A stretch of DNA of 64,000 nt, taken from the NCBI GenBank assembly GCA_949293255.1, contig CASFCL010000001.1:1082-65081 (forward strand), written 5' to 3'. Positions 1-30,178 of the stretch are shown piece by piece (position 1 is the first letter of the stretch; each line of letters starts with the position of its first letter). The DNA comes from an uncultured bacterium. Lineage in GTDB: Bacteria; Bacillota_I; Bacilli_A; RFN20; CAG-826. The notes under the pieces were generated by a model. It was not told the origin of the DNA. It saw only the letters and a list, made by a program, of their open reading frames with translations, and did not search any database. Made by a program: the position numbers and the translations under genes.

Positions 1-1389
1 GGTAAAAATAGAAACATTTACGCAGAGAGTTTACTTGTACTTTTTTCACTTGTCGAAGATGAAGATACATTAGTTAGAAAAGCTGACTTTATCAGATCAC
101 TTAAAGATAAAGCACAAAAAGAACTCAATGCTTTCGAATATGAAAAAGAAGATTTAGATGATTTAGAAGAGGATGCTCTTTTAATGAATACAATTGCTTC
201 TAAGGCATCTTTTATATGTTCAAGATTAGAAGAAACAGGTTGGATTGATGTTGCAATGGATGATGATACTTTTGAAGAGATCATCGTTGTTCCAACTTAC
301 TCCTTTGCACTTTTAAGAAGTATGAGAAACATCATTTCCGATGAAGAGAGCCCATATGTTTCTCTTGTTCATTCAACTTACTCTGAACTTAAACTTGAAG
401 ACGAAGAACAAGATGAGCTTTTATACACAACTTTAAATAGATGCTTTGATAATACGAGAAAGTTAAAAATTGAATTAAAGACTTTAAATAACTCAATTAG
501 AGTCTTTAAAAATAGACTTGGTGGGTTATTCCAAACTAACGCAGTTTTACATCAATACTTTGATGAATATAAAACCAAAGTTAGCGATAGATATTACCAT
601 CCATTAAAAACTTTCGATAGTGTCGCAAAATATAGAAGACCAATTATTAAAATTTTAGACAAATGGCTTAGAACTTCCTCAATTAGAGAAAAACTTATCG
701 AACAATGCATGGCTTCTTCAAAAGTTGGTATGCAAAAAGAAGAAGCAGAAGCTCTTGTCATTAGAAAAATTAATTACATTAGTGATACTTACGATACAAT
801 CAATAAAGAAATTGCAGTTATCGATAGTGAACACAATGTTTATACCAAAAACTCAGCAAATAAGATCTTGTATTTAAACAATACTGATAAAACTATCAAA
901 GGACATTTAGAAAATATTCTTAAATGTTATGCAGAAAATGTAAATAATGGTCGTGTTTTATCAAAAGTCTTATCAAAAATGCAAGATGCCTGTTACTTTT
1001 ATGAACAAGGATACATTGATTCAAAATCTGTAACATTACCAATCTTACGTAAATTTAGATACGATGGCGAACCAATTCCAATTATGGATGGTTTAGAAGC
1101 TAGCGACATGGTAATGTCAAACTTCCTTGAAGAAACTAGAAACATTTACACTGATGAAAGAATTTATCAATTTATGGAAAACGCATTTGGCGGAGCCAAT
1201 GAAGTTTACATGTCAGAAATTCCATTAATTGATTACGATGCATTCGTATGTATAATTCTTGCAACAATTAAAAAAGATGATGAAGACTGTTTCTATACAG
1301 TCGAAGATGTAGACGGAACTAACATTAAAAATAGAGATTTCTCAGTTCCAAACTTAGTTTTCCGTAAGAAAGAGAACTTTATAAATTAG
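1..1389 (+). CDS. MukF/JetA(MksF)-like kleisin-type subunit of an SMC-like condensin module; 5' partial, ORF open to window edge
   Basis: Frame 1 has no stop from nt 1 to the first ATG at 184, so the 401-aa ORF continues upstream of the window. It is the first of three co-directional genes ending in a MukB/JetC-like ATPase. Assignment rests on size, order and context only; no diagnostic motif. Confidence 0.4.
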   Translation, partial: GKNRNIYAESLLVLFSLVEDEDTLVRKADFIRSLKDKAQKELNAFEYEKEDLDDLEEDALLMNTIASKASFICSRLEETGWIDVAMDDDTFEEIIVVPTYSFALLRSMRNIISDEESPYVSLVHSTYSELKLEDEEQDELLYTTLNRCFDNTRKLKIELKTLNNSIRVFKNRLGGLFQTNAVLHQYFDEYKTKVSDRYYHPLKTFDSVAKYRRPIIKILDKWLRTSSIREKLIEQCMASSKVGMQKEEAEALVIRKINYISDTYDTINKEIAVIDSEHNVYTKNSANKILYLNNTDKTIKGHLENILKCYAENVNNGRVLSKVLSKMQDACYFYEQGYIDSKSVTLPILRKFRYDGEPIPIMDGLEASDMVMSNFLEETRNIYTDERIYQFMENAFGGANEVYMSEIPLIDYDAFVCIILATIKKDDEDCFYTVEDVDGTNIKNRDFSVPNLVFRKKENFIN

Positions 1390-1408
1390 ATATTTACGGG
1401 GGTTAACG

Positions 1409-2077
1409 ATGTTTAGTGAAGATTTTACAAAACTTTCAGGTTCAGACCAAACTAGATTTGCAGAAGTCTGTAATAAATTATTATTAAAAGGATTTGTTGT
1501 CCGAGAATTTTATGATCCTCGTGAAAAAACAATGAGAAATAGCCAAGATTACAAATTTATTGAAAGATATTTTGATATTTTTGAAAACTATTTAAAGTTT
1601 AGCGGATGGACTTTAAAAAGAGATGAAAATCTCGGTGTTTACGCACTTTTTAACGATTATGAAGATAATAGAATTAGAATAGATAGAGAAGCTTCTGTTA
1701 TTTTAGTAACCTTAAGAAAAATTTATGATGATCAAAGACAAGAAAATCAAACATCTGCACAAAGTGGTCAAGCAATTTATCTCACAACAAACGGACTGAT
1801 TGGAGCTATGAAAATTTATGGTATTTTCATGCCAGGAAAAAGACTTACAGGTAGACTTGTAGGAAAATCTTTACGTTTCCTTGCTAACCACAACATTATT
1901 GCAAAAGTAAGTGGTAGTTATGATGAAGGTAATGTTAACTTCTTCATTTTACCATCAATAGTTTATGCTCTTGATAATGATAAAGTCGTTGCAATGAGTA
2001 ACGCACTTGATGAATTAAGAGCTAAAGAAAAAGAAAATCAAGGAGGACTTGTAAATGAAGACGCTTACCAAGGTTAA
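1409..2077 (+). CDS. MukE/JetB(MksE)-like small subunit (222 aa)
   Basis: Acidic 222-aa protein sandwiched between the kleisin-like ORF and the SMC-like ATPase. Its 3' end overlaps the ATPase start by 23 nt (translational coupling). Size and position fit DUF4194/MukE-like subunits; no motif proof. Confidence 0.4.
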   Translation: MFSEDFTKLSGSDQTRFAEVCNKLLLKGFVVREFYDPREKTMRNSQDYKFIERYFDIFENYLKFSGWTLKRDENLGVYALFNDYEDNRIRIDREASVILVTLRKIYDDQRQENQTSAQSGQAIYLTTNGLIGAMKIYGIFMPGKRLTGRLVGKSLRFLANHNIIAKVSGSYDEGNVNFFILPSIVYALDNDKVVAMSNALDELRAKEKENQGGLVNEDAYQG

Positions 2078-5000
2078 AATAATCAATTGGCATTATTTTT
2101 GGAACGAAACTCTTGAAGTTAAACCAATCGTTTTCCTTACAGGTTTAAATGGTAGTGGTAAATCGACTTTAATCGATGCTTTACAAGTCGTTTTACTTGG
2201 TGATACTACAGGAAGATACTTTAATAAAGCAGCTATGGATAAATCTGCTCGTACTTTAAAAGGTTACCTTAGAGGTGAGCTTAGTGATACGATGGATGGC
2301 GGATTTAAATATTTAAGAAACGGAAGATTCACTTCCTATATCGCTCTTGAATTTTTTGATACATTAAAAGAAAAATCATTCACCATGGGTATTGTTTTCG
2401 ATATCTTTGAAAGCGGTGATGAAGAACATAGATTCTTCTTCTTAAATGGACCAATTCCTGAAAATCAATTTATTAATGATAGAATTCCAATGGATTACAA
2501 GACATTATCTTGCTATTTAAAAGATAATGAAATTCCTCATGAATTCTTCGATAGCAATACAAAATATAAAGACTTCTTAAAACAACAATTTGGTGGATTA
2601 AAAGATAAATATTTCTCTCTTTTAAAGAAAGCTACATCTTTCTCACCAATTACTGATATTACAACATTTATTACTCAATATGTTTGTGATCCTCAAGCCG
2701 ACATCGAAGTAGGTCTTTTACAAGAAAATATTCAAAACTATAAACGTCTTGAAGAAGAAGCAAAAGTTATTGCTGCAAGAATCGAAAAGCTCGAAGCCAT
2801 CGAAGAAAATTACAATAGATACAAAGAAAATTTAGAGACATTTAAGATTGCTCAATATATCGTAGAAAGATGTGAACTTGAAGGAGCAAAAGATAAATTA
2901 GATGCTTATAAAAGACAAATTCAATCTGCTAAAGATCGTCTTTTAGCAATCGAGATTGAAGTCTCTGATTTTAGACAAAAATTAGCTGATTTAGATAAGA
3001 AAAAGATTAGATTAATTCAAGATAAATCATCTAACTCAGTCGCAAAATTAACTGATGAATTAAATGAACAAAAACAAGATATAACCAAAGAAATGCAAGA
3101 AATCGAAAGAAATGCAAAACTTGTTTCTAACAATTTAAACAATTTATGCAATTCTTATCTCGATGCTGCAAATTCTTTAACAACAAATTTATCAAACTTT
3201 GATTTAACTATCTTAGATGAAGATGAAACTGAAGATATTCAGGAATTACTTACTGAATGTAATCATATCGTCAAAGTTTGTATGGATTTTAGAACAACTT
3301 ATGCAAATGATTTACCTTTACTTACAAAAGAAAATTTAATTGAATTTGGTAAAGAACTTGAACCATTTAGAACAAAAGTTGCTTCTTTAGCAGTTTCTAT
3401 TTCAAGAACTTGCTCCCAAATCATGAAGAAGATTGAAACTTTACAAAAAGAAGAAGCTTCAATGAAAATGGGTCAAAAAGCTTATCCAGCAGGTTTATTA
3501 ACTATTAAAAATAGATTAGAAGAAGAACTTTATAACAAATATCATAAGACAATTGAAGTAAATATTTATTGCGACCTTATTGATATTAGAGATTTAAGCT
3601 GGTCAGATGCAATCGAAGGATATTTAGCACCACAAAAATTTAACTTATTTGTCGCTCCTAAATATTATGTCGATGCCTATAAGATTTTAAAAGAAATCTT
3701 AAGAGAAGAAAATTTCTACGGAACAGCTTTAGTTGATGAAGAAAGAATTATTGAAAGAAATTATCAAAGCGAAGTTGGATCTCTTGCTGATGAAATTAAA
3801 ACTACTCATGATGGAGCAAGAGCTTATACAAACTTCTTAGTCGGTAGACTTTATAAAGCAAAAGATGTCAATGATGCTAGACAAAGTGGTAATGGTATCA
3901 CAAAAGAATGTGATTTATATAGAAACTTCTCATTATCAAAAATTAGTCCACGTTTATATGCTCAATCCTATATTGGTAGTAACGTTGATGCTAGATTCTT
4001 TGAAGATAAAGAAAGACAAGTTAAAGCCAATCAATCTAACTTAAATATTTTTAGAAAATTAAATGAAATTGTTTCAAAAGCAACATCTCTTGAAGCTCTT
4101 TCAAGTGGTAATATTGAAAATATTTTCATGCTTATTTCAAAAGTTTCAACATTAGAAGGATTAAAGAAAAGTCTCGATTACATCGAAGAACAACTCAAAC
4201 AACACGATACAACTTTACTCAATTCTTTAGATAAGAGAATCGCAGAAACTGAAAAAGAAATTGAAAGTGTAAATAAGAAAATTGAAGAATCTTTAATTGA
4301 AAAAGGTAACTTAAATAAAGAAATCGAATCATTAAAGAATGAAAAGATTGTTAATGAAGAAGAAAATATTCGTACTATCCAAGATAGACTTGCAAATTCA
4401 TATGACTATAACTTAGTCACTGAAGAAGCATCTCCTTTATATGAACAAAGAAGAGCAGAAGGAAATACAAATATTGAAATTTTAAGAGATTTCCAAGCTC
4501 AATTATCAAAACTTCAATACCTTGTTAATAACAACACTCAAGCATTACAAAGATTAAGAAGAGAATATTGTAATGATTATCATCTCTCCTTTGCTGTTGA
4601 TGCTGAAAATAACGACCAATTTGATGTTGAACTTCACGATTTTAGAGATGTTAGATTACCTGAATATCAACAAAAGATCGAAGATTCATATCATAAAGCT
4701 ACCCAACAATTTAGAGATGACTTCATCAATAAATTAAGAGGTGCAATTGAAGATGCCGAAGATCAAATCGAAAACTTAAATCAAGCTTTAATCGAATCAC
4801 AATTCGGTAGAGATAGTTATAGATTTACAGTTACTCCATCTTCAACATATAGAAGATATTACGATATGTTAAAAGATGATATCGTATTAACTTCAGGACA
4901 AGATGAAACATTATTCTTAGAAAAATATAAAGATGTCATGGAAGACTTATTTAAACAAATAGTCGATACCGGTGACAAAAACAAAGCAAGCGAGCTTTCT

Positions 5001-5426
5001 TTGAACGTCCAAAAGTTTACAGATTATCGTAGTTATTTAGATTTTGATTTAGTGGTGTATAATAATGATACTGGGGTTCAAGAACGTCTTTCGCAAATGA
5101 TTAGAAAGAAGTCAGGTGGTGAAACTCAAACACCATTCTATATCGCCGTACTTGCCTCATTTGCTCAACTATATCATGTTAATGATGCAGGAGAGTTAGG
5201 CAATACAACTCGTATAATAATTTTCGACGAAGCTTTCTCTAAGATGGATAAGGGAAGAATTAAAGAAGCAGTCAGACTTTTAAGAAAATTTGACTTGCAA
5301 GTTATTCTCTCAGCTCCATCAGATAAAGTTGGCGATATTTCCGAATTAGTTGACGAAACTTTAGTTGTTCTCCACGAGAAGAACTCAAGCTTTGTTAAAT
5401 TATATGCTCAAGACAAACTGAATTAA
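2055..5426 (+). CDS. MukB/JetC(MksB)-like SMC-family ATPase (1123 aa)
   Basis: AGGAGG RBS at 2041-2046, 8 nt before the ATG. N-terminal Walker A is LTGLNGSGKSTLIDALQVVLLGD. Middle ~700 aa is rich in E/K/L/Q heptad-like sequence (coiled coil). C-terminal head has the SGGE signature-like motif (KKSGGETQTPFYIAVLASF) and Walker B/D-loop IIIFDEAFSKMD. Confidence 0.7.
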   Translation: MKTLTKVKIINWHYFWNETLEVKPIVFLTGLNGSGKSTLIDALQVVLLGDTTGRYFNKAAMDKSARTLKGYLRGELSDTMDGGFKYLRNGRFTSYIALEFFDTLKEKSFTMGIVFDIFESGDEEHRFFFLNGPIPENQFINDRIPMDYKTLSCYLKDNEIPHEFFDSNTKYKDFLKQQFGGLKDKYFSLLKKATSFSPITDITTFITQYVCDPQADIEVGLLQENIQNYKRLEEEAKVIAARIEKLEAIEENYNRYKENLETFKIAQYIVERCELEGAKDKLDAYKRQIQSAKDRLLAIEIEVSDFRQKLADLDKKKIRLIQDKSSNSVAKLTDELNEQKQDITKEMQEIERNAKLVSNNLNNLCNSYLDAANSLTTNLSNFDLTILDEDETEDIQELLTECNHIVKVCMDFRTTYANDLPLLTKENLIEFGKELEPFRTKVASLAVSISRTCSQIMKKIETLQKEEASMKMGQKAYPAGLLTIKNRLEEELYNKYHKTIEVNIYCDLIDIRDLSWSDAIEGYLAPQKFNLFVAPKYYVDAYKILKEILREENFYGTALVDEERIIERNYQSEVGSLADEIKTTHDGARAYTNFLVGRLYKAKDVNDARQSGNGITKECDLYRNFSLSKISPRLYAQSYIGSNVDARFFEDKERQVKANQSNLNIFRKLNEIVSKATSLEALSSGNIENIFMLISKVSTLEGLKKSLDYIEEQLKQHDTTLLNSLDKRIAETEKEIESVNKKIEESLIEKGNLNKEIESLKNEKIVNEEENIRTIQDRLANSYDYNLVTEEASPLYEQRRAEGNTNIEILRDFQAQLSKLQYLVNNNTQALQRLRREYCNDYHLSFAVDAENNDQFDVELHDFRDVRLPEYQQKIEDSYHKATQQFRDDFINKLRGAIEDAEDQIENLNQALIESQFGRDSYRFTVTPSSTYRRYYDMLKDDIVLTSGQDETLFLEKYKDVMEDLFKQIVDTGDKNKASELSLNVQKFTDYRSYLDFDLVVYNNDTGVQERLSQMIRKKSGGETQTPFYIAVLASFAQLYHVNDAGELGNTTRIIIFDEAFSKMDKGRIKEAVRLLRKFDLQVILSAPSDKVGDISELVDETLVVLHEKNSSFVKLYAQDKLN

Positions 5427-5446
5427 TAATTTAAGGAGAAATTTTT

Positions 5447-6580
5447 ATGCCAAGAAAAGTTGTCGCGATGATTCTTGCTGGTGGTAAGGGCACCAGATTA
5501 AAAGCTTTAACCAAAAAAATTGCAAAACCTGCAGTTTATTTTGGTGGCAAATACAGAATCATTGATTTTTGCTTGTCCAACGTAGCAAATTCACAAATCG
5601 ATTGTGTTGGTGTTTTAACACAATACGAATCAGTCGTTTTAAACAATTACATCTCAAATGGTCAAATTTGGGGCTTTGATGGAGTCAATTCTACATGTGC
5701 TGCTTTACCTCCTCGTCAAACCGAAGAAGGTGCTAGCTGGTATAAAGGAACTGCCGATGCAATCGCACAAAATATTGATTTCTTAGATGATGAAGAACCA
5801 GAATATGTTTTAATTTTAAGTGGTGATCATATCTATAAAACAACCTATACAGATATGATTAATCTTCATATCAAAACAAAAGCAAGCTGTACAATTTCTG
5901 TTATGGAAGTTGATTGGAAAGAAGCTTCAAGATTCGGTATCTTAGAAGTCGATACAAAAGACAACATTACAAAATTCGTTGAAAAACCAAAAGAACCAAA
6001 ATCAAATTTAGCTTCAATGGGTGTTTATGTATTCACCTATAAAGATTTAAGAAAAGCATTAGTAGAAGATATGAAAAATCCAAATTCATCTCATGACTTT
6101 GGTAAAGATATCATCCCAACAATGTTAAAAGAAAACAAAAAGTTAGTTGCTTATAGATTTAGTGGATATTGGAGAGATGTCGGTACTTTAGAAAGTTTAC
6201 ATACCGCAAATATGGAACTTTTGCCTTCAAGAAGAACCGAAGAAACCATTCATTTTGATGAATATCCAATTATTTATAGTGAAGATACACATTCTCTTCC
6301 TCAATATATTGGAAAAGAAGCAGCAGTTAAAGATTCTTTAATCAACCAAGGTGCTCAAATCTATGGTAGTGTTGAAGAATCAGTTATTTCAAATGAAGTT
6401 GTTGTTATGCCAGGAGCAGTTGTTAAAAATTCTGTCATCATGCCAGGAGTTAAAATTGGTAGAGATGCAGTCGTTACAAATGCAATTATTGGTCCAAACA
6501 CTGTAATTAACGATAAAGAAGTCGTTAATAAAACAGAAAGTGAAATTGTTTTAATCGATAAAGAAAGGAGCCTTCAATAA
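5447..6580 (+). CDS. glgC: glucose-1-phosphate adenylyltransferase catalytic subunit
   Basis: N-terminus AMILAGGKGTRLKALTKKIAKPAVYFGGKYRIIDFCLSNVANS is the canonical GlgC nucleotide-binding region. C-terminal left-handed beta-helix repeats are present. RBS AAGGAG upstream. Confidence 0.9.
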   Translation: MPRKVVAMILAGGKGTRLKALTKKIAKPAVYFGGKYRIIDFCLSNVANSQIDCVGVLTQYESVVLNNYISNGQIWGFDGVNSTCAALPPRQTEEGASWYKGTADAIAQNIDFLDDEEPEYVLILSGDHIYKTTYTDMINLHIKTKASCTISVMEVDWKEASRFGILEVDTKDNITKFVEKPKEPKSNLASMGVYVFTYKDLRKALVEDMKNPNSSHDFGKDIIPTMLKENKKLVAYRFSGYWRDVGTLESLHTANMELLPSRRTEETIHFDEYPIIYSEDTHSLPQYIGKEAAVKDSLINQGAQIYGSVEESVISNEVVVMPGAVVKNSVIMPGVKIGRDAVVTNAIIGPNTVINDKEVVNKTESEIVLIDKERSLQ

Positions 6581-7701
6581 TGAATAATGTCTTAGCTTTA
6601 GTCGATCTTCATAATTCAAAGAAAATCGATGTATTAACTGAACAAAGAGAACTTGCTTCAACTACATTTTTAGCAAGATATGCCTTTATTGATTACGCTC
6701 TTTCAAACTTAATCAATAGTGGTATCGATGATATTTCAATTTTAGCAAGAAGCAACTTTAGAAGTATTTCAAAACATTTAGGTCCAGTTTCAACCTATTT
6801 AAAAAACACAAAAACAGGTTTCTTAAATGTTTTAATGAACGAAAAGGCAATTCCTTCTCCTCAATTCAATACAGATGTTCATAATCTTCAAGAAAATGAC
6901 TACATCTTATATGATTCAAATTGTAAATATGTATTAATTACCCCAGTTCACTTTGTTTATAAAATTGATTTCCAAAAAGTAATTGATGAACACGCTGCTA
7001 GTGGTAAAGTCATCTCAGTACTTTATGGTACAACAAATGAACCAAGTGAATATGCTGGATGTCATAAAATTGTTGTCGATGCAATCGGAAATGCTCAAAA
7101 ATTTGATGTAATTTCTGAAGATGACAAAAATAAAGAAGTTAATGTTTCTTTAGAAACATATGTCGTAAATATGGAATTTTTAAAAGACATTCTTCGTAGA
7201 GCAAAAGATATTTCTGAATTATTCTCACTTGATGAATTATTTAGATATATTGCTCATTATGAAAACGATATGAACTGTATCAAACATGATGGATATTTTA
7301 GATGTTTTGATAGCTTAGCAAAATATTATAAATATTCCTTTGAAATCATGGACTATAAAAATGGTGCAGATAAGATCTTCTCAACCGATAATTTACTTCT
7401 TACAACAACCCACAATTCTAGACCAGTTTTATATGGTAAGAATGCTGATGTAAGACAATCTATCGTTGCTAATGGATCAACAATCAATGGTAAAGTTAGA
7501 CATTCAATTTTATCTAGAGACGTTGTCATTGAAGAAGGTGCTTCAGTAGAAGATTGTATTTTATTTACCCATACAGTTGTTAAAAAAGGTGTCCATCTTA
7601 GAAACGTTGTCGCTGATAAGAGATGTGTTTTTGAAACCAAGGAAAATGTTAGCGGAACCAAAGATGAACCACTTTATGTAAAAAGAGGAGCAATTATTTA
7701 A
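6580..7701 (+). CDS. glgD: glucose-1-phosphate adenylyltransferase regulatory subunit GlgD (Firmicute type)
   Basis: GlgC-paralog fold lacking the GGxGxRL loop, placed between glgC and glgA as in Bacilli. TAATG stop/start overlap with glgC. Confidence 0.8.
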   Translation: MNNVLALVDLHNSKKIDVLTEQRELASTTFLARYAFIDYALSNLINSGIDDISILARSNFRSISKHLGPVSTYLKNTKTGFLNVLMNEKAIPSPQFNTDVHNLQENDYILYDSNCKYVLITPVHFVYKIDFQKVIDEHAASGKVISVLYGTTNEPSEYAGCHKIVVDAIGNAQKFDVISEDDKNKEVNVSLETYVVNMEFLKDILRRAKDISELFSLDELFRYIAHYENDMNCIKHDGYFRCFDSLAKYYKYSFEIMDYKNGADKIFSTDNLLLTTTHNSRPVLYGKNADVRQSIVANGSTINGKVRHSILSRDVVIEEGASVEDCILFTHTVVKKGVHLRNVVADKRCVFETKENVSGTKDEPLYVKRGAII

Positions 7702-9143
7702 TGAAAATTTTAATGGCTAGTGGCGAATGTTTGCCATTTTCAAAAACTGGTGGACTTGGTGATGTTGCTTATTCTTTAAGTAAAGAATTTGCCAAAAAAA
7801 GACACGCAGTTTCAGTTATTACTCCTTTATATTCATCCATCAAACTTGAAAAATTCCCACCTTTAGAAAAGGTTTGTGATATGACAGTTAAGATGAACTG
7901 GAGAAATATCAAATGTTCAGTCTATACTGTAAAAGTTGATGGTATTAGTTATTATTTAGTAGATAATAAGTATTATTTCTATAGAGATTCCTTATATGGT
8001 TTTTATGATGATGGCGAAAGATTTGCTTTCTTTTCAAACGCTGTTATCGAATTTATGAAAACTATTAATAAGAAATTTGATATCGTTCATGTTCACGATT
8101 GGCAAGTTGGTATGATTCCATGTTTACTTAAAGTAAAATATTGGAATGATGACTATTTAAAAAATGTAAAAACAGTTTTAACAATTCATAACCCACTTTT
8201 TAAAGGTTATTTCTCAAGTGGTAGTTTATATGACTTATATGAATTAGATATAAGTTTATATAACAACGGAAGTGTTAGACTTGATAACCAAGTTTCAACA
8301 TTAAAAGCTGCTATTAAATTTGCTGATAAAATTACAACAGTCTCTCCAACTCATGCTTATGAACTTACAACTGTTGAAGGTTCGATGGGTTTATGGTATG
8401 ACTTAACTTTAAGAAAAGATGATTTTGTCGGTATTTTAAATGGTATGGATTATGGTGAATTTGATCCATCAAAAGATCCTCGAATTGTTAAAAATTTCGA
8501 TGTCACTAACTTTAAAGAAAATAAAAAAGTAAATAAAATTGCTTTCTGTAAAGAACATGGATTAGATCCAAACTTACCACTTTATGCAGTAGTTTCTAGA
8601 CTTACTGATCAAAAAGGTCTCGATTTAATATTTGCAATGAGCGATTTCTTAACTTATGCCGGTGGAAATTTTGCTGTTTTAGGAAGTGGAGAAAAATACG
8701 CTGAAGATTATTTCAATGATTTATATAAGAGAAATCCAAATCACACATATGTTTATATTGGATATAGTGATCAAATTGCTCACGAATTATATGCCGCAAG
8801 TGATTTCTTCATTATGCCATCCAAATTTGAACCATGTGGATTAGGTCAAATGGTTGCTCATACATATGGAAGTTTACCAATTGTTAGAGAAACCGGCGGA
8901 TTAAAAGATAGCGTTATCGGATATGATTTCATTTATGGAACCAATAAAGATAAAGCTGATGGATTCTCATTCTATGACCATAATCCTCAAGTTGCAGTAA
9001 GAGTTATTGGTGAAACACTTAATTTATATAATAAAGATCAAGAAACATTCCATAAATTAGTGGAAAACGCCATGAAATGCGATCATTCCTGGAATCAATC
9101 TGCAAAAGAATATTTAAAACTTTATAATTCAATTCTTAAATAG
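7701..9143 (+). CDS. glgA: glycogen synthase (ADP-glucose type)
   Basis: N-terminus MKILMASGECLPFSKTGGLGDVAYSLSKEF (KTGGL motif) plus GT-B C-terminal half. TAATG overlap with glgD. Confidence 0.9.
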   Translation: MKILMASGECLPFSKTGGLGDVAYSLSKEFAKKRHAVSVITPLYSSIKLEKFPPLEKVCDMTVKMNWRNIKCSVYTVKVDGISYYLVDNKYYFYRDSLYGFYDDGERFAFFSNAVIEFMKTINKKFDIVHVHDWQVGMIPCLLKVKYWNDDYLKNVKTVLTIHNPLFKGYFSSGSLYDLYELDISLYNNGSVRLDNQVSTLKAAIKFADKITTVSPTHAYELTTVEGSMGLWYDLTLRKDDFVGILNGMDYGEFDPSKDPRIVKNFDVTNFKENKKVNKIAFCKEHGLDPNLPLYAVVSRLTDQKGLDLIFAMSDFLTYAGGNFAVLGSGEKYAEDYFNDLYKRNPNHTYVYIGYSDQIAHELYAASDFFIMPSKFEPCGLGQMVAHTYGSLPIVRETGGLKDSVIGYDFIYGTNKDKADGFSFYDHNPQVAVRVIGETLNLYNKDQETFHKLVENAMKCDHSWNQSAKEYLKLYNSILK

Positions 9144-9149
9144 AGTTTG

Positions 9150-9345
9150 ATATACTAAAAATCACTTTTGAATAATTTAAGAAGTTTGTTATTTAGAGAG
9201 CTAATGAATGGTGAAAATTAGTTAACAAATCTTAAAGTCTCACCAAAAGAAGACAAATTAGAAAGTGTATCTATCATAATGATAGATAAATTAAGGTGGT
9301 ACCACGCAAAAAGCGTCCTTAACTAGGATGCTTTTTTATGTAAAT
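9150..9345 (+). promoter_or_regulatory. T-box leader (tRNA-sensing riboswitch) upstream of leuS
   Basis: AGAGAG (stem I region) at about 9196. Stem III palindrome tctatcat/atgataga at 9270-9287. T-box sequence aaattaaggtggtaccacgc at 9288-9307. Terminator hairpin aagcgtcc..ggatgctt followed by TTTTTT at 9311-9337. Confidence 0.65.
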
Positions 9346-9357
9346 GGAGGTAAAAAT

Positions 9358-11760
9358 ATGAGTTACAATCATAAAGAAATTGAGAGCAAATGGTCTAAAT
9401 ATTGGATTGAACATAAAGAGTATCGCTGCGATACATCAGATTTTTCAAAACCAAAATATTATGCTCTTGACATGTTCCCTTATCCTAGCGGACAAGGATT
9501 ACATGTCGGACATCCTGAAGGCTATACCGCAACTGATATAGTTTCAAGAATGAAAAGAATGCAAGGATATAATGTTTTACATCCAATTGGTTGGGATGCT
9601 TTTGGTCTTCCAGCTGAACAATATGCGATGAAAATGAACGAACATCCTGAATCTTTTACAATGAAAAATATTGATAACTTCAGAAGACAAATTCAAATGT
9701 TAGGTTTTTCTTATGATTATGACCGTGAAATTTTTACTTGTAAACCTGATTATTATCATTGGACTCAATGGATTTTTACTAGACTTTACGACCATAATTT
9801 AGCTTATGTAGATTATAAACCAGTTAACTGGTGTCCTGAACTTGGTACCGTTTTAGCAAATGAAGAAGTAATTGATGGAAAATCAGAAAGAGGTGGTTAT
9901 CCAGTCATCCGTAAACCAATGAGACAATGGATGTTAAAAATTACTGAATATGCTGATAGACTTGCCTCCGATTTGGAAGATTTAGATTGGCCAAAATCAA
10001 CAATTGAAATGCAAAGAAACTGGATTGGAAAATCAAAAGGTACCGAAATTATCTTTAAAATTGTTGATTCTAATGAAACTTTTACAGTTTTTACAACTAG
10101 AGCTGATACTTTATTTGGTTGTACTTATTGTTGTCTTGCTCCTGAACATCCACTTGTTAAAAGTTTAGTAGGTGAAGAATGTAAAGAAGCTGTCACAAAA
10201 TATATTGAAGAAGTTTCCCATAAATCAGATATTGAAAGAACTGGAACCAACCAAGAAAAAACAGGTGTATTTATTGGAAGATATGCAATTAATCCAATAA
10301 ATGGAAAGAAAATTCCTATTTATATAGCTGATTATGTTTTAGCAAGTTATGGAAGTGGAGCAGTTATGGCAGTTCCAGCTCATGATACAAGAGACTATGA
10401 ATTTGCTAAAAAACATGATTTAGAAATGATTCAAGTTTTAGAAGGAGATATTTCTGAAACTGCTTTTGTTGATGATGCAAAACATATTAATAGTGATTTC
10501 ATCAATGGAATGATGATTGATAAAGCAAAAGAAGCAGTCACTAATAAATTAATTGAATTAGGTGCTGGTAATTTTAAAATCAATTACAAATTAAGAGATT
10601 GGTTATTCTCAAGACAAAGATATTGGGGTGAACCAATTCCTGTTGTTAACTTTAATGATGGAACAATGGCAAGAATTAAAGATAGTGAATTACCTTTAGT
10701 TTTACCTGAACTTGATGAATATAAACCTTCAGGAACTGGAGAATCACCATTAGTTTATGCAACTGAATGGTTAAAAGTTAATGAAGGTGGAAAAGAAGGA
10801 GTTAGAGAAACTAACACTATGCCTCAATGGGCAGGAAGCTGTTGGTATTATCTTAGATATATTGATCCACATAATGATAAAGAAATTGGTGATAAGAAAT
10901 TATTAGATCACTGGCTTCCAGTTGATTTATATATCGGCGGACAAGAACATGCTGTTTTACACTTACTTTATGCTCGTTTCTGGCATAAATTCTTATATGA
11001 TATTGGAGTTGTTAGCTGCAAAGAACCATTCAAAAAATTATTCCATCAAGGCATGATTTTAGGTGAAAATGGTGAAAAAATGTCAAAATCTAGAGGAAAT
11101 GTCATTAATCCAGACCAAATTGTTAATGATTATGGTGCAGATTCGTTAAGATTATATGAAATGTTTATGGGACCTCTTGAAGCTTCATTACCTTGGTCAA
11201 ATAAAGGACTTGAAGGTGCCAGAAGATTTATTGAAAGAGTTTACCGTTTATTTGATGAAGAACAATTTGTTAGTAAATATAGTTATGTAAATAATGGAAA
11301 ATTAGATTACATTTATAACTTTACAGTTAAAAAAGTGACTGAAGATTTTGAAAATTTACAATTTAACACTGCAATTTCTCAAATGATGATTTTCATCAAC
11401 GAAGTTTATAAACAAGATCAAATTTATAAACCATATTTAGAAAATTTTGTTAAGATGTTTGCTTGTATTTGTCCATTTATCGGTGAAGAAATTTATCATA
11501 AACTTGGCCACGAAGAAACAATTACTTATGCAACTTGGCCTACTTTCGATGAAAGTAAATTAAAATTTGAAACAATCAAAATAGCAGTTCAAGTTAATGG
11601 AAAACTTAGAGATACAATTGAAATTGATATCGATAGTGATGAAGAAAGTGTCAAAGAGTTGGCACAAAATTCTGAAAATGTAAAAAGATTTACTGATGGA
11701 AAAACCATCAAAAAGATAATTTACGTTAAAAACAAAATCGTAAATATTGTTGCAATTTAA
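9358..11760 (+). CDS. leuS: leucyl-tRNA synthetase
   Basis: HVGHPEGY (HIGH) and KMSKS motifs; 801 aa from the ATG at 9358, which has a GGAGGT RBS. The track start at 9328 lies inside the T-box terminator U-tract. Confidence 0.95.
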
Positions 11761-11831
11761 TCAAAAAATATATTAAATATTATCGTTTTACAACACGATA
11801 CCTTATTTATAAGGATTGTAGGAGGTAGAAT

Positions 11832-12587
11832 ATGATTTTATGTGTAGATATTGGAAACACTTCTATTAAGTGTGGATTTTATGATGATGAAAAAATGGTC
11901 GATTTTTTCGCCATTGATTCATCAAGAGAAAGAAGTTCATACCAATATAGTGCAATTTTAAACACTTTTATAAAAGATAGTTTTGAAATTGATGGAGCTA
12001 TAATTTCAAGTGTTGTCCCTTCTTTAACAACGACTTTAAAACTTGCTTTACAAAGTTTTGTTAAAGGAAAAATTTTAATTTTAAATAAAAATTTAAAGAC
12101 AAAATTACCAATCAAAATTGATAATCCTAATGAACTTGGAAGCGATCTTTTAGCAGGAGCAATTGGAGCAAAAATGAAATATGAGCCTCCTTTTGTTGTC
12201 GCTGATTTAGGAACAGCAACTAAACTTTATGTTGTTTCAAAAGAAGGATTTTTTATTGGTGTAATTATTGGAGCAGGAATGGATGTATCTTTAAAAGCTT
12301 TAGTTGATAAGACATCTTTGCTTTTAGAAACACCTTTAGAAGCACCTTCAAAAATTATAGGAAAAAATACTAAAGATTCGATCCAATCGGGAATTGTCTA
12401 TGGTCAAGCTTACATGATTAGTGAGTTTGCTAGAAGAATTGAAAATGAACTTGGATATAAACTCACAAGAGTTTTAACAGGTGGATTTTCAAATATTATT
12501 AAACAAGAAGTGGTTTGTTTTAACCATGAACCAAATCTTGTTTTAGATGGTTTATACCATATTTATAAAATGAATATTGAGAGGTAG
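11832..12587 (+). CDS. coaX: type III pantothenate kinase
   Basis: MILCVDIGNTSIKCGFY N-terminus and ASKHA-fold length (251 aa) typical of CoaX/Bvg accessory factor family. GGAGG RBS. Confidence 0.85.
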   Translation: MILCVDIGNTSIKCGFYDDEKMVDFFAIDSSRERSSYQYSAILNTFIKDSFEIDGAIISSVVPSLTTTLKLALQSFVKGKILILNKNLKTKLPIKIDNPNELGSDLLAGAIGAKMKYEPPFVVADLGTATKLYVVSKEGFFIGVIIGAGMDVSLKALVDKTSLLLETPLEAPSKIIGKNTKDSIQSGIVYGQAYMISEFARRIENELGYKLTRVLTGGFSNIIKQEVVCFNHEPNLVLDGLYHIYKMNIER

Positions 12588-17835: not shown

Positions 17836-17878
17836 TTTTACATTTAATTAATTTATATATATAAGAAAGGATTAATTT

Positions 17879-19261: not shown

Positions 19262-20137
19262 ATGCTTGTACAGATAATTGATCAGTATCCAATCCAAGAC
19301 ATAATTGTTATTCTATTTGTACTTTTAGGTGTTTTAATTGGTGCCTGCCAAGGCTTACTTAGAAAATTACATAGAATGGTTATTTTGGTGGCCGTTTTCT
19401 TAATTATCTACTTTATTTTTAGTGGTATTTTAAGCGATCGGATAAGGTACAATTCATTAGCTGATTTCAATTTTGTTTTATCATTTACCTACGAAAACAT
19501 AACTTTTGAGGTCTATTCTGTAGAAGATTTATTTGTTCTTTTTCAAAATTTAGGAGTTGATAGTGGACTATTAAAAATGACTTGTGAGGGACTTTGCGAT
19601 GCATTGTCTTTTGCTATTTTATTTATAGTGTCTATCTTCTTATCAACGTTTATCAGTTGGATATTATTCGACTTAATATTCAAACATATCTTTCCTCAAA
19701 GTTGGGTTAAAGGTGGCCTTCTTAAAAGAATACTTGGTGCTTTACTTGGAGGAGTTGAATGGCTTGCAATTTTAGTCGTAATATCTGTAGCTTTAGGTAG
19801 TATTACCGGCGGCTTAAATGAAGTTGTCGTACCTGAACTTCAAGATCCAAATTCAGGAGTTGCTCAACTTATAACTTCCTTTGGTGGAGTTGATGCTTCA
19901 ATGCTTGAAAATATTGCATCTTACATGCAAATTGCTAGTGGAATTTTAAGCCCAGTAAGTGACAAAGCAACAATCATTCCAAATATCGTTGGATTATTCA
20001 AAGATATGAATCTTGATTTATTGAAATTATTTAGTGGAGGATCATACAATTCTTCAAATGAACTTGTTGAATCTTCACTTTACGATGGAATGGTTACATT
20101 CTGGAATGAAATTCGTCAGATAGCATCAAAAATTTAG
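19262..20137 (+). CDS. CvpA-family-like integral membrane protein with C-terminal extension
   Basis: N-terminal part (IIVILFVLLGVLIGACQGLLRKLHRMVILVAVFLII..) resembles colicin V production protein CvpA. 4 or more TM helices; 291 aa. Confidence 0.45.
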   Translation: MLVQIIDQYPIQDIIVILFVLLGVLIGACQGLLRKLHRMVILVAVFLIIYFIFSGILSDRIRYNSLADFNFVLSFTYENITFEVYSVEDLFVLFQNLGVDSGLLKMTCEGLCDALSFAILFIVSIFLSTFISWILFDLIFKHIFPQSWVKGGLLKRILGALLGGVEWLAILVVISVALGSITGGLNEVVVPELQDPNSGVAQLITSFGGVDASMLENIASYMQIASGILSPVSDKATIIPNIVGLFKDMNLDLLKLFSGGSYNSSNELVESSLYDGMVTFWNEIRQIASKI

Positions 20138-20202
20138 GATATTTAAACTCCTATTTATCTTATATATTAGGAGAATGAATATAGATTTAAGGGGGATTCT
20201 TT

Positions 20203-21996
20203 ATGGAAAAGAAGAAACAAGCTTGGAGGGCATTTATAGTTGGACTTATCTTTGTCCTATTAACTGTAGCTGCTGCTCTATTAGTCTTCGTCGATTTAGG
20301 CGAAGCACTTCGTTTAGTCTGCATTTCAGAAAGTCGTTACTTACTTCCAGTTGATGGATTAGTTGGCGTTTTTGATATGTGGTTTTTCGGTTGGTTTGAA
20401 AATTATTCTCCAACCCACATTTTAGGCTTTAGCCTTTTTGCATTAGTTGCTGTTATCAGCATCGTAATGGTCGTTGTCATGTGTGTAAAAAGAAAGGGCA
20501 AAGTTGCAGCATATGGAATTGCTTCAATTGTCATGATGTTTGCTCTTTTATTTGCCGCAAGTATCGTTTTAGAAATTAATACAGTTTCTGGCTATTATTT
20601 CGATACATATTTAATTGATGCACTTACATTTAGTGCAGTTGGTGATGTTATCGTTGATGTATTTGATAGTGTTAAAGTTCTTGTATTTGCTGTCTTAGCT
20701 TTAGTTGCAGTTATTTGTGTTATCGCTTTAGAAATCGTTCTTATGATAGAACCAAAAGCAGTTAGAGAACCAAAAGCAGTTAAAGAAGAACCAAAACCAG
20801 TTGAACCATCAGCTGAAGTCAAAGATGAAGGAGTCGAAGAAGTTAAAGAAGAACCAAAGAGAAAGGTTATCTTAACTGTAAAAAGATTCGATATATACGC
20901 AAATTCAAATAATATTGTTGAAAAAGAAACAAATTATCCAAAAGAAAATATCGAAGTAAAAGCACTCTCAACAGAAGACATTCGTGCAGTTTTACGCGAT
21001 GAACTTGAAAGAAGAGAATTAGCATCTCGTGCTTTAGATCCATATAGATATGAAGAAAGAAGATGCGAACAAAAACGTGTTAATAATGAACCAGATTGCT
21101 GCTGTGTTGATGCTAAAAAAGAAGAAGAGGTAAAAGAAGTACCAACACCAGTTATCGTTACAATTCCTACTCCAATTAAAAAAGAAGAAGAAAAGCCTGT
21201 CGAAAAAGAAAAGAAAGGTTTAACAAAAGAAGATGTTCAAAACATCATTAAAGAAGAATTAGCTGCTGCTTTAGAAGAATTCAAAAAAGAAGCTAAACCA
21301 GCTCCTAAAAAAGAACCAAGAACAATCGTTGTTAGAGTTCCTAGACAAGTAGTCACTCAAACAGTTGTCCAAAAAGAAGTTGTAAAAGAAGAAGCTAAAG
21401 CTGAACCAGCTCCAGCTCCTGTTGCTGAGCCAGTTAAAGAAGAAAAACCAGCTTCAGCTCCAAAAGCTGAACCTGTTAAAGAAGAAGTTAAAGCTGAACC
21501 AACACCAGCACCAGTCGCTAGTGAAGAAGCTCCAGCTGAAGAAGGTGTAGCAAAAGTTGAAAGAGTTCCATTCTCAACCAGAATGAAAGAAGCTGCTCCA
21601 GAACTTAGAGAACATTACAACAACTTAAAATCATTATTAAAATCCTATGGATTAAATAACAGAGTTGCTAATGGTGGTGATACATTTAGACTTCACCGTG
21701 TAACATACTGTAAGATCACAATTGCAGGAAAAGCATTAAAACTCTACCTTGCGTTAGATCCAAATGATTATAAAGACACCACATTACCTATCAAAGATAG
21801 TAGTGGTAAAGCAGTTTATAAAGATATTCCACTCGTATTCAAAGTTAAGAGTGATTTATCCTATCGTAGAGCTGAACAATTAATTACTGACTGTATGGAA
21901 AAACATGGACTTGAACAAATCGATCAAGTCAAAGTCGAAGATTGGGCAAGCAGACTCGATGAAGAAATGGCTGCCGGTGATGATAGTGAAGATTAA
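20203..21996 (+). CDS. multi-pass membrane protein with E/K/P/V/A-rich disordered linker and conserved C-terminal domain (paralog 1)
   Basis: AAGGGGG RBS. About 4 N-terminal TM helices. Residues ~185-455 are low-complexity (PKAVREPKAVKEEPKPVEP..AEPAPAPVAEPVKEE). C-terminal ~140 aa are clearly homologous to the C-terminus of the next gene. Confidence 0.7.
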   Translation: MEKKKQAWRAFIVGLIFVLLTVAAALLVFVDLGEALRLVCISESRYLLPVDGLVGVFDMWFFGWFENYSPTHILGFSLFALVAVISIVMVVVMCVKRKGKVAAYGIASIVMMFALLFAASIVLEINTVSGYYFDTYLIDALTFSAVGDVIVDVFDSVKVLVFAVLALVAVICVIALEIVLMIEPKAVREPKAVKEEPKPVEPSAEVKDEGVEEVKEEPKRKVILTVKRFDIYANSNNIVEKETNYPKENIEVKALSTEDIRAVLRDELERRELASRALDPYRYEERRCEQKRVNNEPDCCCVDAKKEEEVKEVPTPVIVTIPTPIKKEEEKPVEKEKKGLTKEDVQNIIKEELAAALEEFKKEAKPAPKKEPRTIVVRVPRQVVTQTVVQKEVVKEEAKAEPAPAPVAEPVKEEKPASAPKAEPVKEEVKAEPTPAPVASEEAPAEEGVAKVERVPFSTRMKEAAPELREHYNNLKSLLKSYGLNNRVANGGDTFRLHRVTYCKITIAGKALKLYLALDPNDYKDTTLPIKDSSGKAVYKDIPLVFKVKSDLSYRRAEQLITDCMEKHGLEQIDQVKVEDWASRLDEEMAAGDDSED

Positions 21997-22013
21997 TCAC
22001 GGAGGTACTATTT

Positions 22014-24176
22014 ATGGAACAAACTAGAAGATTTAGAAAAGGTTTCATGGCAAAATGGTACATCATTGGTATTGTTTCCATTCTTGTCTGTTTATTCGTT
22101 TTATCCGTTACATTTATTGGTAGTGTCGCAGGATTAATTCCTGGACTTGGTGATTATAGTGCATCAATTCCTGGTGCCTATCCATTTGCAGGTGTTACTG
22201 AAGCAGTAAAGACTACACTTAAATCAATCCCATCATATTTCAGGGGTATTGAAAATGTTACCAATTGGGTTCCATTTGCAGCTCAAATGGGTGCATGGGT
22301 TATAGCATTCTTCGTTGTTGTTTATTTCTTTGCACATGTCATTACCTTTATTGCAAAAAGAAAATGGTCATATTTCATTCATAGTATTCTTGCTTTATGT
22401 ATGGTTTCTGGCCTTGTTGGAATTTATTTCTCATCATCTTATGTTTTAAGTGGTTATCAAACCAGTGAAGTTATCACTAATGGTGGTAATGTTACATATT
22501 TATATGTTAGAAGTCTTTTCTTAACAGGATTTGAAGGAACCATCGATTGGACAAGTACAAATGTTTGGATGTGTGTAATTTATTGGGCATTAGCAGTTAT
22601 CTTTGTAGTTGCTTTAATCCTTGCTGTTGTTTCCGTCTTTGCAGTTTCATCATATCCATGCAACTTTGCTAGAAAATATGTTAAAGGCAAAGCAAAAGAA
22701 GCAAAAGATAAGAAAGCCGAAGAAGAAGGTAGATATGGATATGGTCCAGAAGGTATGCAAGCCATTCCAGCAAATGGACAAGGTGTCTATGTTAATACCG
22801 GAAATGCAACTCCTTACGTTGTTCAATATTTCTATGGAAATCAACCAGCTGCTCCTGCAGCCGCTCCAGCAGAACCAGTTAAAGAAGCTGAAAAAGCTCC
22901 TGTAGCTGAAGCAAAACCTGGTTTAACAAAAGAAGACTTAAAAGAAGTTTTAAGTGAATTAATGGCAAAAAAAGAAGAAGATGAAAAAGCCAAAGCAGCT
23001 GCTTTAGCAGTCGCAGCACCTATTGCTGTTCCTGCACCAGCACCAGCACCAGCTCCAGTTGTTGAAGAAAAAGTTGATCCAGTCGAAGTTGCTCTTGAAG
23101 AAATTGAAAAACATTTCGATTTAGTCGATTATGAAGATGTAAAAACTTTCATTGCAGGTGAAGTTGATAAAGCCGCTCAAGAAGCTATTAGACAACTTGA
23201 AAAGCAAAGAGAAGAATTAGAAAAAGCAAAAGCTGCTGAAACAAAAGAAGAAGCAACAGTTGCTTATAAAGAAGAAAAACCAGTAGTCCAAGAAGAAAAA
23301 CCAGCACCAGTTGAAGAAGCTGTTAAAGTAGTTACTCCAATTGTTGTTGCTGTTCCTAGCGACTATCCTAGAGAAGCAAAAGCTCCAGTTGAAGAAGTTG
23401 AAGAAGTTAATGAAGAAGATATTAGATCATTAATTAAAGATGAAATTAGAAGTGCTTTTACTTCATTAAAAGAAGAAGCTCCTGAAGAAGAATGTGGAGA
23501 AGAAGCCGATGATATTCATATTGAATATGTTTATGAAGATGAATATGTTGAAGCTGCTCCAGTTGTAGAAGAAGTAGTTAAAGAAGAACCAGCTCCAGTT
23601 GCTGAACCTGTTAAAGAAGAAGCACCTGTAGTTGAAGAAAAACCTGTTGAAGTTGCTCCAGTTGTAGAAGAAGTTAAACCTTCTCCAGCTCCAAAAAGAG
23701 TTATTCCTCAAAAAGAAGTTAGAGGAAAAGAAGAAGCAATTGAAAAAGGTGAAATCGTTAAATTAGCATTCGATGAAAGAATGGTCAATGCTGAAGATGA
23801 TATTAAAGCTGCTTATCAATCATTAAAATCATTATTATTATCTTATGGATTAAATAGCCGTGTATCATCAACTGGCGATACATTTAGATTATCCAAAAAG
23901 ACATACTGCAAAGTTACATGCAGTGGTCAAGCATTAAAGATTTATCTTGCCTTAGATCCAAAATCATATGCAAATAGTGCAATTCCTGTAAATGATTCAT
24001 CTACAAAAGAAGCCTATAAGCAAATTCCATTAGGATTTAGAGTCAAATCGGATTTATCTTTAAGAAGAGCGAGAGATTTAATCATCGATTGCATGAACCA
24101 AAACGATCTTGTTCCAAATAAAGAATTTGTCGAAGAAGATTACGTTAAAGCTTTAAAAGACAATTTAAAGAAATAG
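22014..24176 (+). CDS. multi-pass membrane protein with E/K/P/V/A-rich disordered linker and conserved C-terminal domain (paralog 2)
   Basis: GGAGG RBS. About 5 N-terminal TM helices. Long acidic/Pro-Ala-rich linker. C-terminus (QSLKSLLLSYGLNSRVSSTGDTFRLSKKTYCKVTCSGQALKIYLALDPK..FRVKSDLSLRRARDLIIDCM) aligns with the paralog-1 C-terminus (NNLKSLLKSYGLNNRVANGGDTFRLHRVTYCKITIAGKALKLYLALDPN..FKVKSDLSYRRAEQLITDCM). Confidence 0.7.
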   Translation: MEQTRRFRKGFMAKWYIIGIVSILVCLFVLSVTFIGSVAGLIPGLGDYSASIPGAYPFAGVTEAVKTTLKSIPSYFRGIENVTNWVPFAAQMGAWVIAFFVVVYFFAHVITFIAKRKWSYFIHSILALCMVSGLVGIYFSSSYVLSGYQTSEVITNGGNVTYLYVRSLFLTGFEGTIDWTSTNVWMCVIYWALAVIFVVALILAVVSVFAVSSYPCNFARKYVKGKAKEAKDKKAEEEGRYGYGPEGMQAIPANGQGVYVNTGNATPYVVQYFYGNQPAAPAAAPAEPVKEAEKAPVAEAKPGLTKEDLKEVLSELMAKKEEDEKAKAAALAVAAPIAVPAPAPAPAPVVEEKVDPVEVALEEIEKHFDLVDYEDVKTFIAGEVDKAAQEAIRQLEKQREELEKAKAAETKEEATVAYKEEKPVVQEEKPAPVEEAVKVVTPIVVAVPSDYPREAKAPVEEVEEVNEEDIRSLIKDEIRSAFTSLKEEAPEEECGEEADDIHIEYVYEDEYVEAAPVVEEVVKEEPAPVAEPVKEEAPVVEEKPVEVAPVVEEVKPSPAPKRVIPQKEVRGKEEAIEKGEIVKLAFDERMVNAEDDIKAAYQSLKSLLLSYGLNSRVSSTGDTFRLSKKTYCKVTCSGQALKIYLALDPKSYANSAIPVNDSSTKEAYKQIPLGFRVKSDLSLRRARDLIIDCMNQNDLVPNKEFVEEDYVKALKDNLKK

Positions 24177-26635: not shown

Positions 26636-27039
26636 ACGTAGGAGTGGTACTTTTTTCATCAGGATTCATGATTTCTTTTTTAACTTTCTTTACGATTTCA
26701 ATTAAAGGAATGGGAGTTAATAGAATCATCAATAATATACCGTTAAGTGTTATAGAAAATTCAGTAATTTTTAATGGTGAAAATGATAATTTAAATGGTT
26801 ACTTTGATAAAGAAGTATTGGAATCAAATACAAAAAATTATTTAAATACTGCCTTAAAAGATAAGGTTCCAAGGTACAAAATTAGTTTTTTATATTTTTA
26901 CACGGATGAAGAAAATCAAATAAAGTTAGATCTGACAGATTACCCTGAAAGTGTACAAATTCATGTTTCAACTTGTTATTTTCAAAGTTATGAATGTCAA
27001 AGTTATTTAACGTTTTATATAGGAGAATTATTGGTATGA
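26632..27039 (+). CDS. small membrane-anchored protein (N-terminal TM), unknown function
   Basis: ATGA overlap with the upstream gene; single N-terminal hydrophobic helix; 135 aa. Confidence 0.45.
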   Translation: MNVGVVLFSSGFMISFLTFFTISIKGMGVNRIINNIPLSVIENSVIFNGENDNLNGYFDKEVLESNTKNYLNTALKDKVPRYKISFLYFYTDEENQIKLDLTDYPESVQIHVSTCYFQSYECQSYLTFYIGELLV

Positions 27040-28863: not shown

Positions 28864-29458
28864 TTTATTATTCCTTTTAGCAATCGCTAGTATAGTCTTA
28901 TTCTTTTACAATTTATTACTTGTAATTGTTATTGTCTTTTTAGCAGTAGTTTTTGATTATCGGTATTTTTATCGATATTCACAAATGAAAGAGAAGATTA
29001 GAGAGAAACAAATTGACGAATTTATCGAGATATTTTCATATTTTAGAATTTATGTAAGTAATAACGAAAATGTATATACAGCTTTAAAAAATATATTACA
29101 GTTTGCATCTTATAATACAAAAGAAAGATTACAAACTTTGATCAACGAAATTGATGAAGATAAAAGCTTAGCCCCATTTGTTAAATTTTCAGATTATTAT
29201 AAAAATAAAACAATAGAAGAAGTAATGGTTTCTTTATATGAGATGATTTGTGAAGGAAATGAGTTAATCTACCTAAATCAATTTATTAGAGTATTTGAGG
29301 AATTTAAAACTCAAAGAAATAATGATAGTAAAACTAAACGATATAAGGTTTTTGATTATCTAACTTTGTTTAGTTTAGGAGGTAGCGGAATATTAATGAT
29401 AATTCTTGTTTTTGGAATTATTAATTTATTAGGAGATATGAATTTTAATGGGTTCTAA
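28784..29458 (+). CDS. second TadB/TadC-like platform membrane protein
   Basis: Same TM, helical domain, TM layout (224 aa). Its ORF overlaps the previous one by 80 nt in another frame. Confidence 0.45.
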   Translation: MTKKLKNLINEVGLSYKNEISKLIAINLLFLLAIASIVLFFYNLLLVIVIVFLAVVFDYRYFYRYSQMKEKIREKQIDEFIEIFSYFRIYVSNNENVYTALKNILQFASYNTKERLQTLINEIDEDKSLAPFVKFSDYYKNKTIEEVMVSLYEMICEGNELIYLNQFIRVFEEFKTQRNNDSKTKRYKVFDYLTLFSLGGSGILMIILVFGIINLLGDMNFNGF

Positions 29459-30173: not shown

Positions 30174-30178
30174 AAGTT

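Follow-up and report, generated by a model that had tools for sequence, protein, structure and literature searches.

What does the motor of a plasmid-restriction system do when no nuclease gene accompanies it? This question was raised by the first 5,446 nucleotides (nt) of a 64,000-nt stretch of DNA from an uncultured bacterium (GTDB lineage Bacillota_I; Bacilli_A; RFN20; CAG-826; contig CASFCL010000001.1, positions 1,082 to 65,081), the whole of which we will refer to as the window. Three genes there, jetA, jetB, and jetC, encode predicted subunits of an SMC (structural maintenance of chromosomes) complex of the Wadjet type, and they lead into glgC, where a Wadjet operon would continue with the nuclease gene jetD. 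The answer that we favor, with moderate confidence, is that the operon encodes a type I Wadjet motor whose lineage lost JetD long ago and kept JetABC as a chromosomal housekeeping set, a Firmicute counterpart to the nuclease-free MksBEF of Pseudomonas aeruginosa. Since a motor without JetD cannot cleave the DNA that it extrudes, its selected function would most likely lie in the folding, segregation, or other management of the host chromosome, not in the destruction of plasmids.

A preliminary description of the window had proposed that three co-directional, tightly packed or overlapping genes correspond to MksF-MksE-MksB (= JetA-JetB-JetC). All of its coordinates held, the ATPase motifs that it reported in the third protein were found in their places, and glgC does start 20 nt past the third gene with no predicted terminator between them. 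Its size for the second protein was also correct, but the protein is only mildly acidic (isoelectric point 5.99; 31 D+E versus 30 K+R). The features, all on the plus strand, are as follows.

1..1389 (+): jetA, kleisin subunit; 5' end open at the window edge, 462 codons inside the window.
1409..2077 (+): jetB, KITE subunit (MukE/MksE-like, DUF4194), 222 amino acids (aa).
2055..5426 (+): jetC, SMC-type ABC ATPase, 1123 aa.
JetC motifs: Walker A GLNGSGKST, residues 30-38; signature SGGE, residues 1020-1023; Walker B IIIFDEAF, residues 1054-1061.
5427..5446 (+): jetC-glgC spacer, 20 nt; holds the glgC ribosome-binding site AAGGAGA, with no predicted terminator.
5447..9143 (+): glgC-glgD-glgA, glycogen synthesis; downstream neighbors, outside the SMC complex.

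The start of jetB lies 19 nt beyond the jetA stop, and jetB and jetC overlap by 23 nt. Full-length JetA has 478 aa, and its first 16 codons, which fall outside the window, were read from public-assembly contigs that encode an identical JetB (L001-L006).

Profile searches bore out the proposed identities, and the operon proteins were assigned unambiguously to type I Wadjet JetA, JetB, and JetC, with strong Pfam or PADLOC matches for all three. JetA matched Pfam PF18982 (E = 4.8e-88, profile positions 6-434 of 434) and PADLOC JetA1 PDLC00449 (E = 1.2e-110); the type I JetA family here is thus PF18982/DUF5716 and not DUF3375, as had been claimed. JetB matched Pfam DUF4194 (E = 1.2e-16) and PADLOC JetB1 PDLC00502 (E = 4.6e-64), and it barely reached the Pfam MksE family PF21980 (27.9 bits, cut-off 27). 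The match of JetC to PADLOC JetC1 PDLC00519 (1119 bits) spanned residues 1-1121. Pfam domains on JetC were AAA_29, SbcC_Walker_B, and a weakly matching MukB N-terminal domain (24 bits, cut-off 23), and its score of 16.4 bits on the canonical SMC model TIGR02168 (cut-off 567) indicates that it is not a canonical SMC protein. None of the window operon proteins had a Pfam match to the MukF or MukE families.

The gene that defines a Wadjet operon, jetD directly 3' of jetC, was not there; glgC occupies that place. To search more widely, a JetD hidden Markov model (HMM) was built from 12 JetDs of the nearest jetD-bearing relatives and run against six-frame translations with filters off. It gave no match at E ≤ 10 in the 64-kb window, and no jetD was found in the 10 kb downstream of it. 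The preliminary description had left room for a jetD upstream of the window, and inspection of that sequence refuted it: the 8.5 kb upstream of the operon, taken from contigs L001-L006, held no jetD and only housekeeping genes, in the order priA, a 159-aa open reading frame (ORF), rsmB, rlmN, a PP2C phosphatase gene, a Ser/Thr kinase gene, rpe, a 231-aa ORF, rpmB (minus strand), a 158-aa ORF (minus strand), and jetA. Downstream, glgCDA was followed by leuS and coaX, and the rest of the window and the 10 kb beyond it carried ordinary core genes, including nusA, infB, ribF, pnp, rnj, ftsK, plsC, alaS, greA, comEC, and holA. In total, jetD was absent from ~82 kb around the operon. As a positive control, the same HMM recovered 14 of 14 JetDs in the Clostridia loci described below (E ≤ 2e-22). 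The two remaining options of the preliminary description, a nuclease-less MksBEF-type condensin and a Wadjet without jetD, are really one story, and the type I profiles together with the missing jetD support it.

Relatives of the operon came from a scan with a JetC alignment in which each species was represented by one genome; the loci were then annotated. They formed two groups, one of 65 loci from uncultured Bacilli and one of 15 loci from Clostridia. Members of the Bacilli group, which we take to belong to the GTDB order RFN20, had JetC proteins 46-63% identical to that of the window, and jetA-jetB-jetC was found in all 65 loci and jetD in none (no match to the JetD HMM at E ≤ 10 by the same six-frame search of the DNA near the operon, up to 23 kb per genome). 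They were labelled Candidatus Onthovivens (in the NCBI taxonomy Bacilli, Caryophanales incertae sedis), Coprobacillus sp. CAG:826, Mollicutes, or Bacilli bacterium, and many came from evidently mislabelled bins. Low-GC Bacilli loci that probably sit under wrong labels or in contaminated bins were L010, L012, L013, L017, L023, L028, L060, L064, and several 'Staphylococcaceae' bins; the labels on such bins were Lachnospiraceae, Acutalibacteraceae, Slackia, Parabacteroides, Bacteroidaceae, Phocaeicola, Gemmiger, and Staphylococcaceae. The commonest arrangement in the Bacilli group ran from rlmN through the PP2C phosphatase gene, the kinase gene, rpe, the 231-aa ORF, and rpmB (minus strand) to jetABC and on to glgCDA and leuS.

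The Clostridia group, with JetC proteins 36-39% identical to the window JetC, comprised the nearest jetD-bearing systems found. Its 15 loci lay in 15 different contexts, and jetD was directly 3' of jetC in 14 of them; in Caldicoprobacter oshimai DSM 21659 (L067), for example, the ORF at that position encodes JetD (PADLOC JetD1, E = 1e-134). In the fifteenth, L074, from a Bacillota metagenome bin, a calcineurin-like phosphoesterase ORF (Metallophos, E = 2e-8) begins 163 nt after jetC (11783-12436, plus strand), and the contig ends inside it; the phosphoesterase could be an alternative effector or a mere neighbor. Both groups had the same best PADLOC sub-models (PDLC00449, PDLC00502, and PDLC00519), to which the Clostridia proteins gave the better fit (1299/586/291 bits versus 1119/369/214 bits). 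The window operon thus falls within the same type I sub-family, as its more divergent branch without a nuclease.

JetD/MksG systems are patchily distributed, which has been attributed to horizontal transfer, and few are known in Firmicutes (PMC10123090). The Bacilli operons did not have this patchy, horizontally spread distribution: synteny was kept in most of the 65 loci, whereas variable contexts do occur among the jetD-bearing Clostridia relatives. The nuclease-free state is thus not a one-off loss, being syntenic across at least 65 species-level genomes. Sampling that was independent of jetABC pointed the same way. Six contigs picked by LeuS alone (76-83% identical to the window LeuS) carried rpmB-jetABC-glgCDA-leuS in four cases and jetD in none. 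A metagenome scan anchored on GlgC gave nearly only unrelated high-GC organisms, and its single in-clade locus, L088, was also jetABC-glgC.

Sequence divergence of the Jet proteins followed that of LeuS. Among the Bacilli loci, pairwise identities of JetC and LeuS were correlated with a Spearman coefficient of 0.83, and those of JetA and LeuS with one of 0.79; in a Mantel test, 0 of 999 permutations reached either value. Housekeeping genes of unlinked function gave coefficients of 0.73-0.80 with each other, no better than Jet with LeuS. Mean protein identity within the clade was 0.56-0.61 for the Jet proteins, compared with 0.54 for GlgA, 0.53 for Rpe, and 0.47 for the Ser/Thr kinase. Ratios of nonsynonymous to synonymous substitution (dN/dS, Nei-Gojobori) for jetA, jetB, and jetC were 0.01-0.12 in 25 close pairs, and glgC, glgA, and leuS fell in the same range in the same pairs. 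Apart from loci truncated at the end of a contig, all had the three jet frames intact. When the window JetC was aligned with 13 homologs 55-68% identical to it (mean column identity, 71%), the Walker A, signature, and Walker B motifs and the motifs after them showed little or no variation. These are the marks of a gene set that is inherited vertically, held under strong purifying selection, and maintained as host genes.

In solved systems with all four subunits, JetD binds to the JetC heads and to a short segment at the JetB N-terminus, and it cuts small circles once they are fully extruded. Mean column identity over JetB residues 1-30 was 0.53 in the jetD-less clade versus 0.71 in the jetD-bearing systems, with equal overall conservation; as a soft hint, this weaker conservation would fit the loss of JetD. 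Within the jetD-less clade, this segment keeps a fair degree of conservation, in the form MF-E-E-F. Mapping of the known JetD-contact residues (JetC F919 and the JetB N-terminal IFDR motif) onto the window proteins was tried and rejected, the matches being too weak for reliable mapping. A PDB sequence search gave nothing for JetC at E ≤ 1e-10 and nothing for JetB at E ≤ 0.001, and a 14-sequence JetC profile gave only weak partial matches to Pseudomonas aeruginosa JetC in the PDB.

Other explanations of the operon have to be weighed against the same evidence. JetABC might still act against plasmids or episomes with no nuclease of its own, by sequestering, silencing, or destabilizing small circular DNA or by recruiting an unrelated host nuclease. 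Its closest relatives of known biology are plasmid-restriction systems, its proteins best match defense-system models, and the JetB segment that contacts JetD elsewhere, being still fairly conserved, may bind some partner; eukaryotic Smc5/6 provides a precedent for silencing without cleavage (PMC10586767). We nevertheless consider such a defense role unlikely, given the core-genome position, co-divergence with LeuS, and housekeeping-level dN/dS across at least 65 species, which are unlike the patchy pattern of MksG/JetD systems (PMC10123090), and given that no effector gene is consistently adjacent, the neighbors being small membrane proteins or glycogen genes. Retention of plasmid cleavage by a complete Wadjet with a split operon, its jetD relocated elsewhere in the genome, appears very improbable. 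The DNA covered, ~82 kb here and no more than 23 kb in each related genome, leaves space for such a gene, but 14 of the 15 relatives of the jetD lineage have jetD immediately after jetC (with a different ORF in L074), neither the window nor the 65 Bacilli loci held a jetD or a fragment of one, and the lower conservation of JetB residues 1-30 also argues against a retained partner.

It is scarcely credible that the operon is a decaying Wadjet remnant, heading for pseudogenization after the loss of jetD. Its defining effector is gone and one sublineage has no jet block at this site, yet the frames are intact, the ATPase motifs vary little or not at all, dN/dS equals that of leuS and the glg genes, and the Jet proteins have a mean identity equal to or above that of core proteins such as Rpe, GlgA, and the Ser/Thr kinase.

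Several points weigh against a chromosomal housekeeping role without JetD, the reading that we prefer. All clade members are metagenome-assembled genomes, and the function proposed for them is a prediction from their genes. A jetD more than 10 kb from the operon could exist, since the DNA covered was that given above. The co-divergence test used linked genes, for which transfer of the whole block is not formally separable from host descent; as a counterweight, LeuS is encoded by a universal single-copy gene. Some defense systems are also inherited vertically over long periods. The search for Smc-ScpAB reached only DNA local to the operon, so the absence of smc, scpA, and scpB from ~82 kb of this genome, and of any SMC-like gene from related loci L001-L086 (~1.4 Mb), carries no weight. 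Finally, a sublineage represented by L171 and L175 (LeuS 80% identical) has no rpmB-jetABC-glgCDA block beside leuS; jetABC is movable or dispensable in this sublineage, so that not all members share its place at this site. As rpmB is gone too, the block may have moved and not been lost. At this site in L171 (6676-10000; L175, 1-10000, likewise has no block), both flanks are otherwise conserved and the gap is filled by four unrelated genes, for an ECF S-component, a 2-thiouracil desulfurase, a YgjP-like protein, and a SpoU methylase.

If the operon is indeed a nuclease-free chromosomal set, its mechanism may be sketched from its family. In known systems of this kind, the hinge mediates dimerization of JetC, and JetA both spans the heads and, through its N-terminal domain, connects two motors; the kleisin and DNA are bound by dimers of JetB, and loop extrusion is powered by ATP hydrolysis. 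By homology to the solved JetABC and MukBEF complexes, the window proteins would assemble into two SMC motors bridged by the kleisin, a dimer that would load on DNA and use ATP to extrude loops, and without JetD the extruded DNA would be left uncleaved. The promoter of jetABC probably lies in the gap of 95-160 nt upstream of jetA, and transcription may read through into glgCDA.

The glycogen genes are the most frequent downstream neighbors of the operon. Pfam searches found NTP_transferase and hexapeptide domains in the glgC and glgD products, and Glyco_transf_5 and Glycos_transf_1 in that of glgA, the latter read in the contigs encoding an identical JetB. In 46 of 62 related loci, glgC was directly 3' of jetC, at a median distance of 33 nt; the glg genes were absent and leuS came next after jetC in 4 of the 62. 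No terminator-like hairpin was predicted on the plus strand in window positions 1-9400, although the promoter and terminator scans performed no better than shuffled sequence and show only the absence of a predicted terminator. Co-transcription of jetC and glgC is plausible given this absence, and an obligatory functional tie of jetABC to the glycogen genes is unlikely.

The remaining 12 of the 62 loci, which are deeper-branching and jetD-less (L034, L035, L041, L045, L049, L054-L058, L065, and L066), had a 284-326-aa two-helix membrane protein encoded between jetC and glgC (for example, L054 13386-14240). The gene begins 10-56 nt past jetC, and the protein has an N-terminal pair of membrane helices and is unrelated to JetD. 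One subgroup of these proteins matches DUF3137; the subgroups are alike in size and layout, with no significant sequence similarity between them. On the other side of the operon, divergent from jetA, lies a gene for a protein of 150-160 aa that is predicted to have two membrane helices and whose conserved C-terminal domain ends in FPxxKL (L001 7905-8381, minus strand, just upstream of window position 1). The protein had no Pfam or PADLOC match. Homologs were present in about half of L008-L072, and elsewhere a YbaK-like gene or just rpmB was found. Both membrane proteins were considered as replacement fourth subunits and rejected, since they are not nucleases and do not occur in all loci.

A few observations concern other parts of the window. 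Three consecutive ORFs of 291, 597, and 720 aa with no Pfam family (19262-24176) lie in the sole stretch of raised GC content (0.35 versus 0.27-0.31 elsewhere). Genes for competence-type DNA uptake were present, with a type II/IV secretion ATPase gene and small downstream ORFs at 26994-29458 and comEA-like and comEC-like genes just 3' of the window (L168 14752-17320); DNA uptake may thus occur in an organism whose Wadjet motor has no nuclease. Rfam, at gathering thresholds, identified only two tRNAs in the whole 64 kb (Glu and Asn; 30097-30253, minus strand) and no T-box or riboswitch, including at 9144-9357 and 17836-17878, despite the ~200-nt leader of leuS. Every 2-kb bin showed a positive GC skew, and the plus strand carries almost all of the genes; the whole window therefore belongs to a single replichore, and its genes run in the direction of replication.

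The window operon may be compared with several known systems. It shares motor subunits, gene order, tight coupling, and PADLOC sub-models with type I Wadjet (JetABCD = MksBEFG, EptABCD), such as the Clostridia operons, and differs in its fixed syntenic core location, in its vertical descent, and in that no JetD was found, the point on which Wadjet membership fails. Smc-ScpAB, the usual Firmicute condensin, has the same ABC head, long coiled coil, and kleisin partner, but the partners in the window are JetA and JetB instead of ScpA and ScpB, and JetC scored far below the canonical SMC model. The gamma-proteobacterial MukBEF has the same dimeric, kleisin-bridged SMC architecture with a KITE dimer, to which the weak MukB N-terminal match of JetC may be added; it differs in that the window proteins have no MukF or MukE matches and are clearly Wadjet type I by sequence. 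P. aeruginosa, which also has Smc-ScpAB, encodes in MksBEF a three-gene kleisin/KITE/SMC complex with no nuclease, like that of the window, where JetB reaches the MksE threshold. A role in chromosome folding and segregation is documented for this nuclease-free MksBEF. The window clade differs from it in that its loss of JetD would be independent and would have occurred in a Firmicute sub-family of type I Wadjet, and in that its chromosomal role is a predicted one.

Loss of JetD from a Wadjet plasmid-defense system, which was then co-opted to maintain the host genome, has been proposed as the origin of both MksBEF and MukBEF, and MukBEF is proposed to have replaced Smc-ScpAB. In the literature searched, we found no account of a nuclease-free JetABC shared by a whole clade of Firmicutes, and the Bacilli JetABC would accordingly represent a new, independently derived complex of the nuclease-free MksBEF type. 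The proposed origins of MksBEF and MukBEF are old and their sequences have drifted far, whereas the same step appears here within a recognizable type I sub-family. In the small-genome Bacilli clade, JetABC may even have replaced Smc-ScpAB as the main condensin, which we regard as doubtful; if true, this would make a second takeover of the kind proposed for MukBEF, independent of it and much younger, and one whose sister group with jetD can still be recognized.

Sister systems that carry jetD are only ~60% diverged from those of the Bacilli, and the two thus offer a natural matched pair with and without the nuclease, for comparison of an immune motor with a chromosome motor. Defense annotators will call loci such as this one incomplete Wadjet systems, and they should probably not be counted as plasmid defense. 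To a poorly known group of gut Bacilli, JetABC adds a candidate second condensin.

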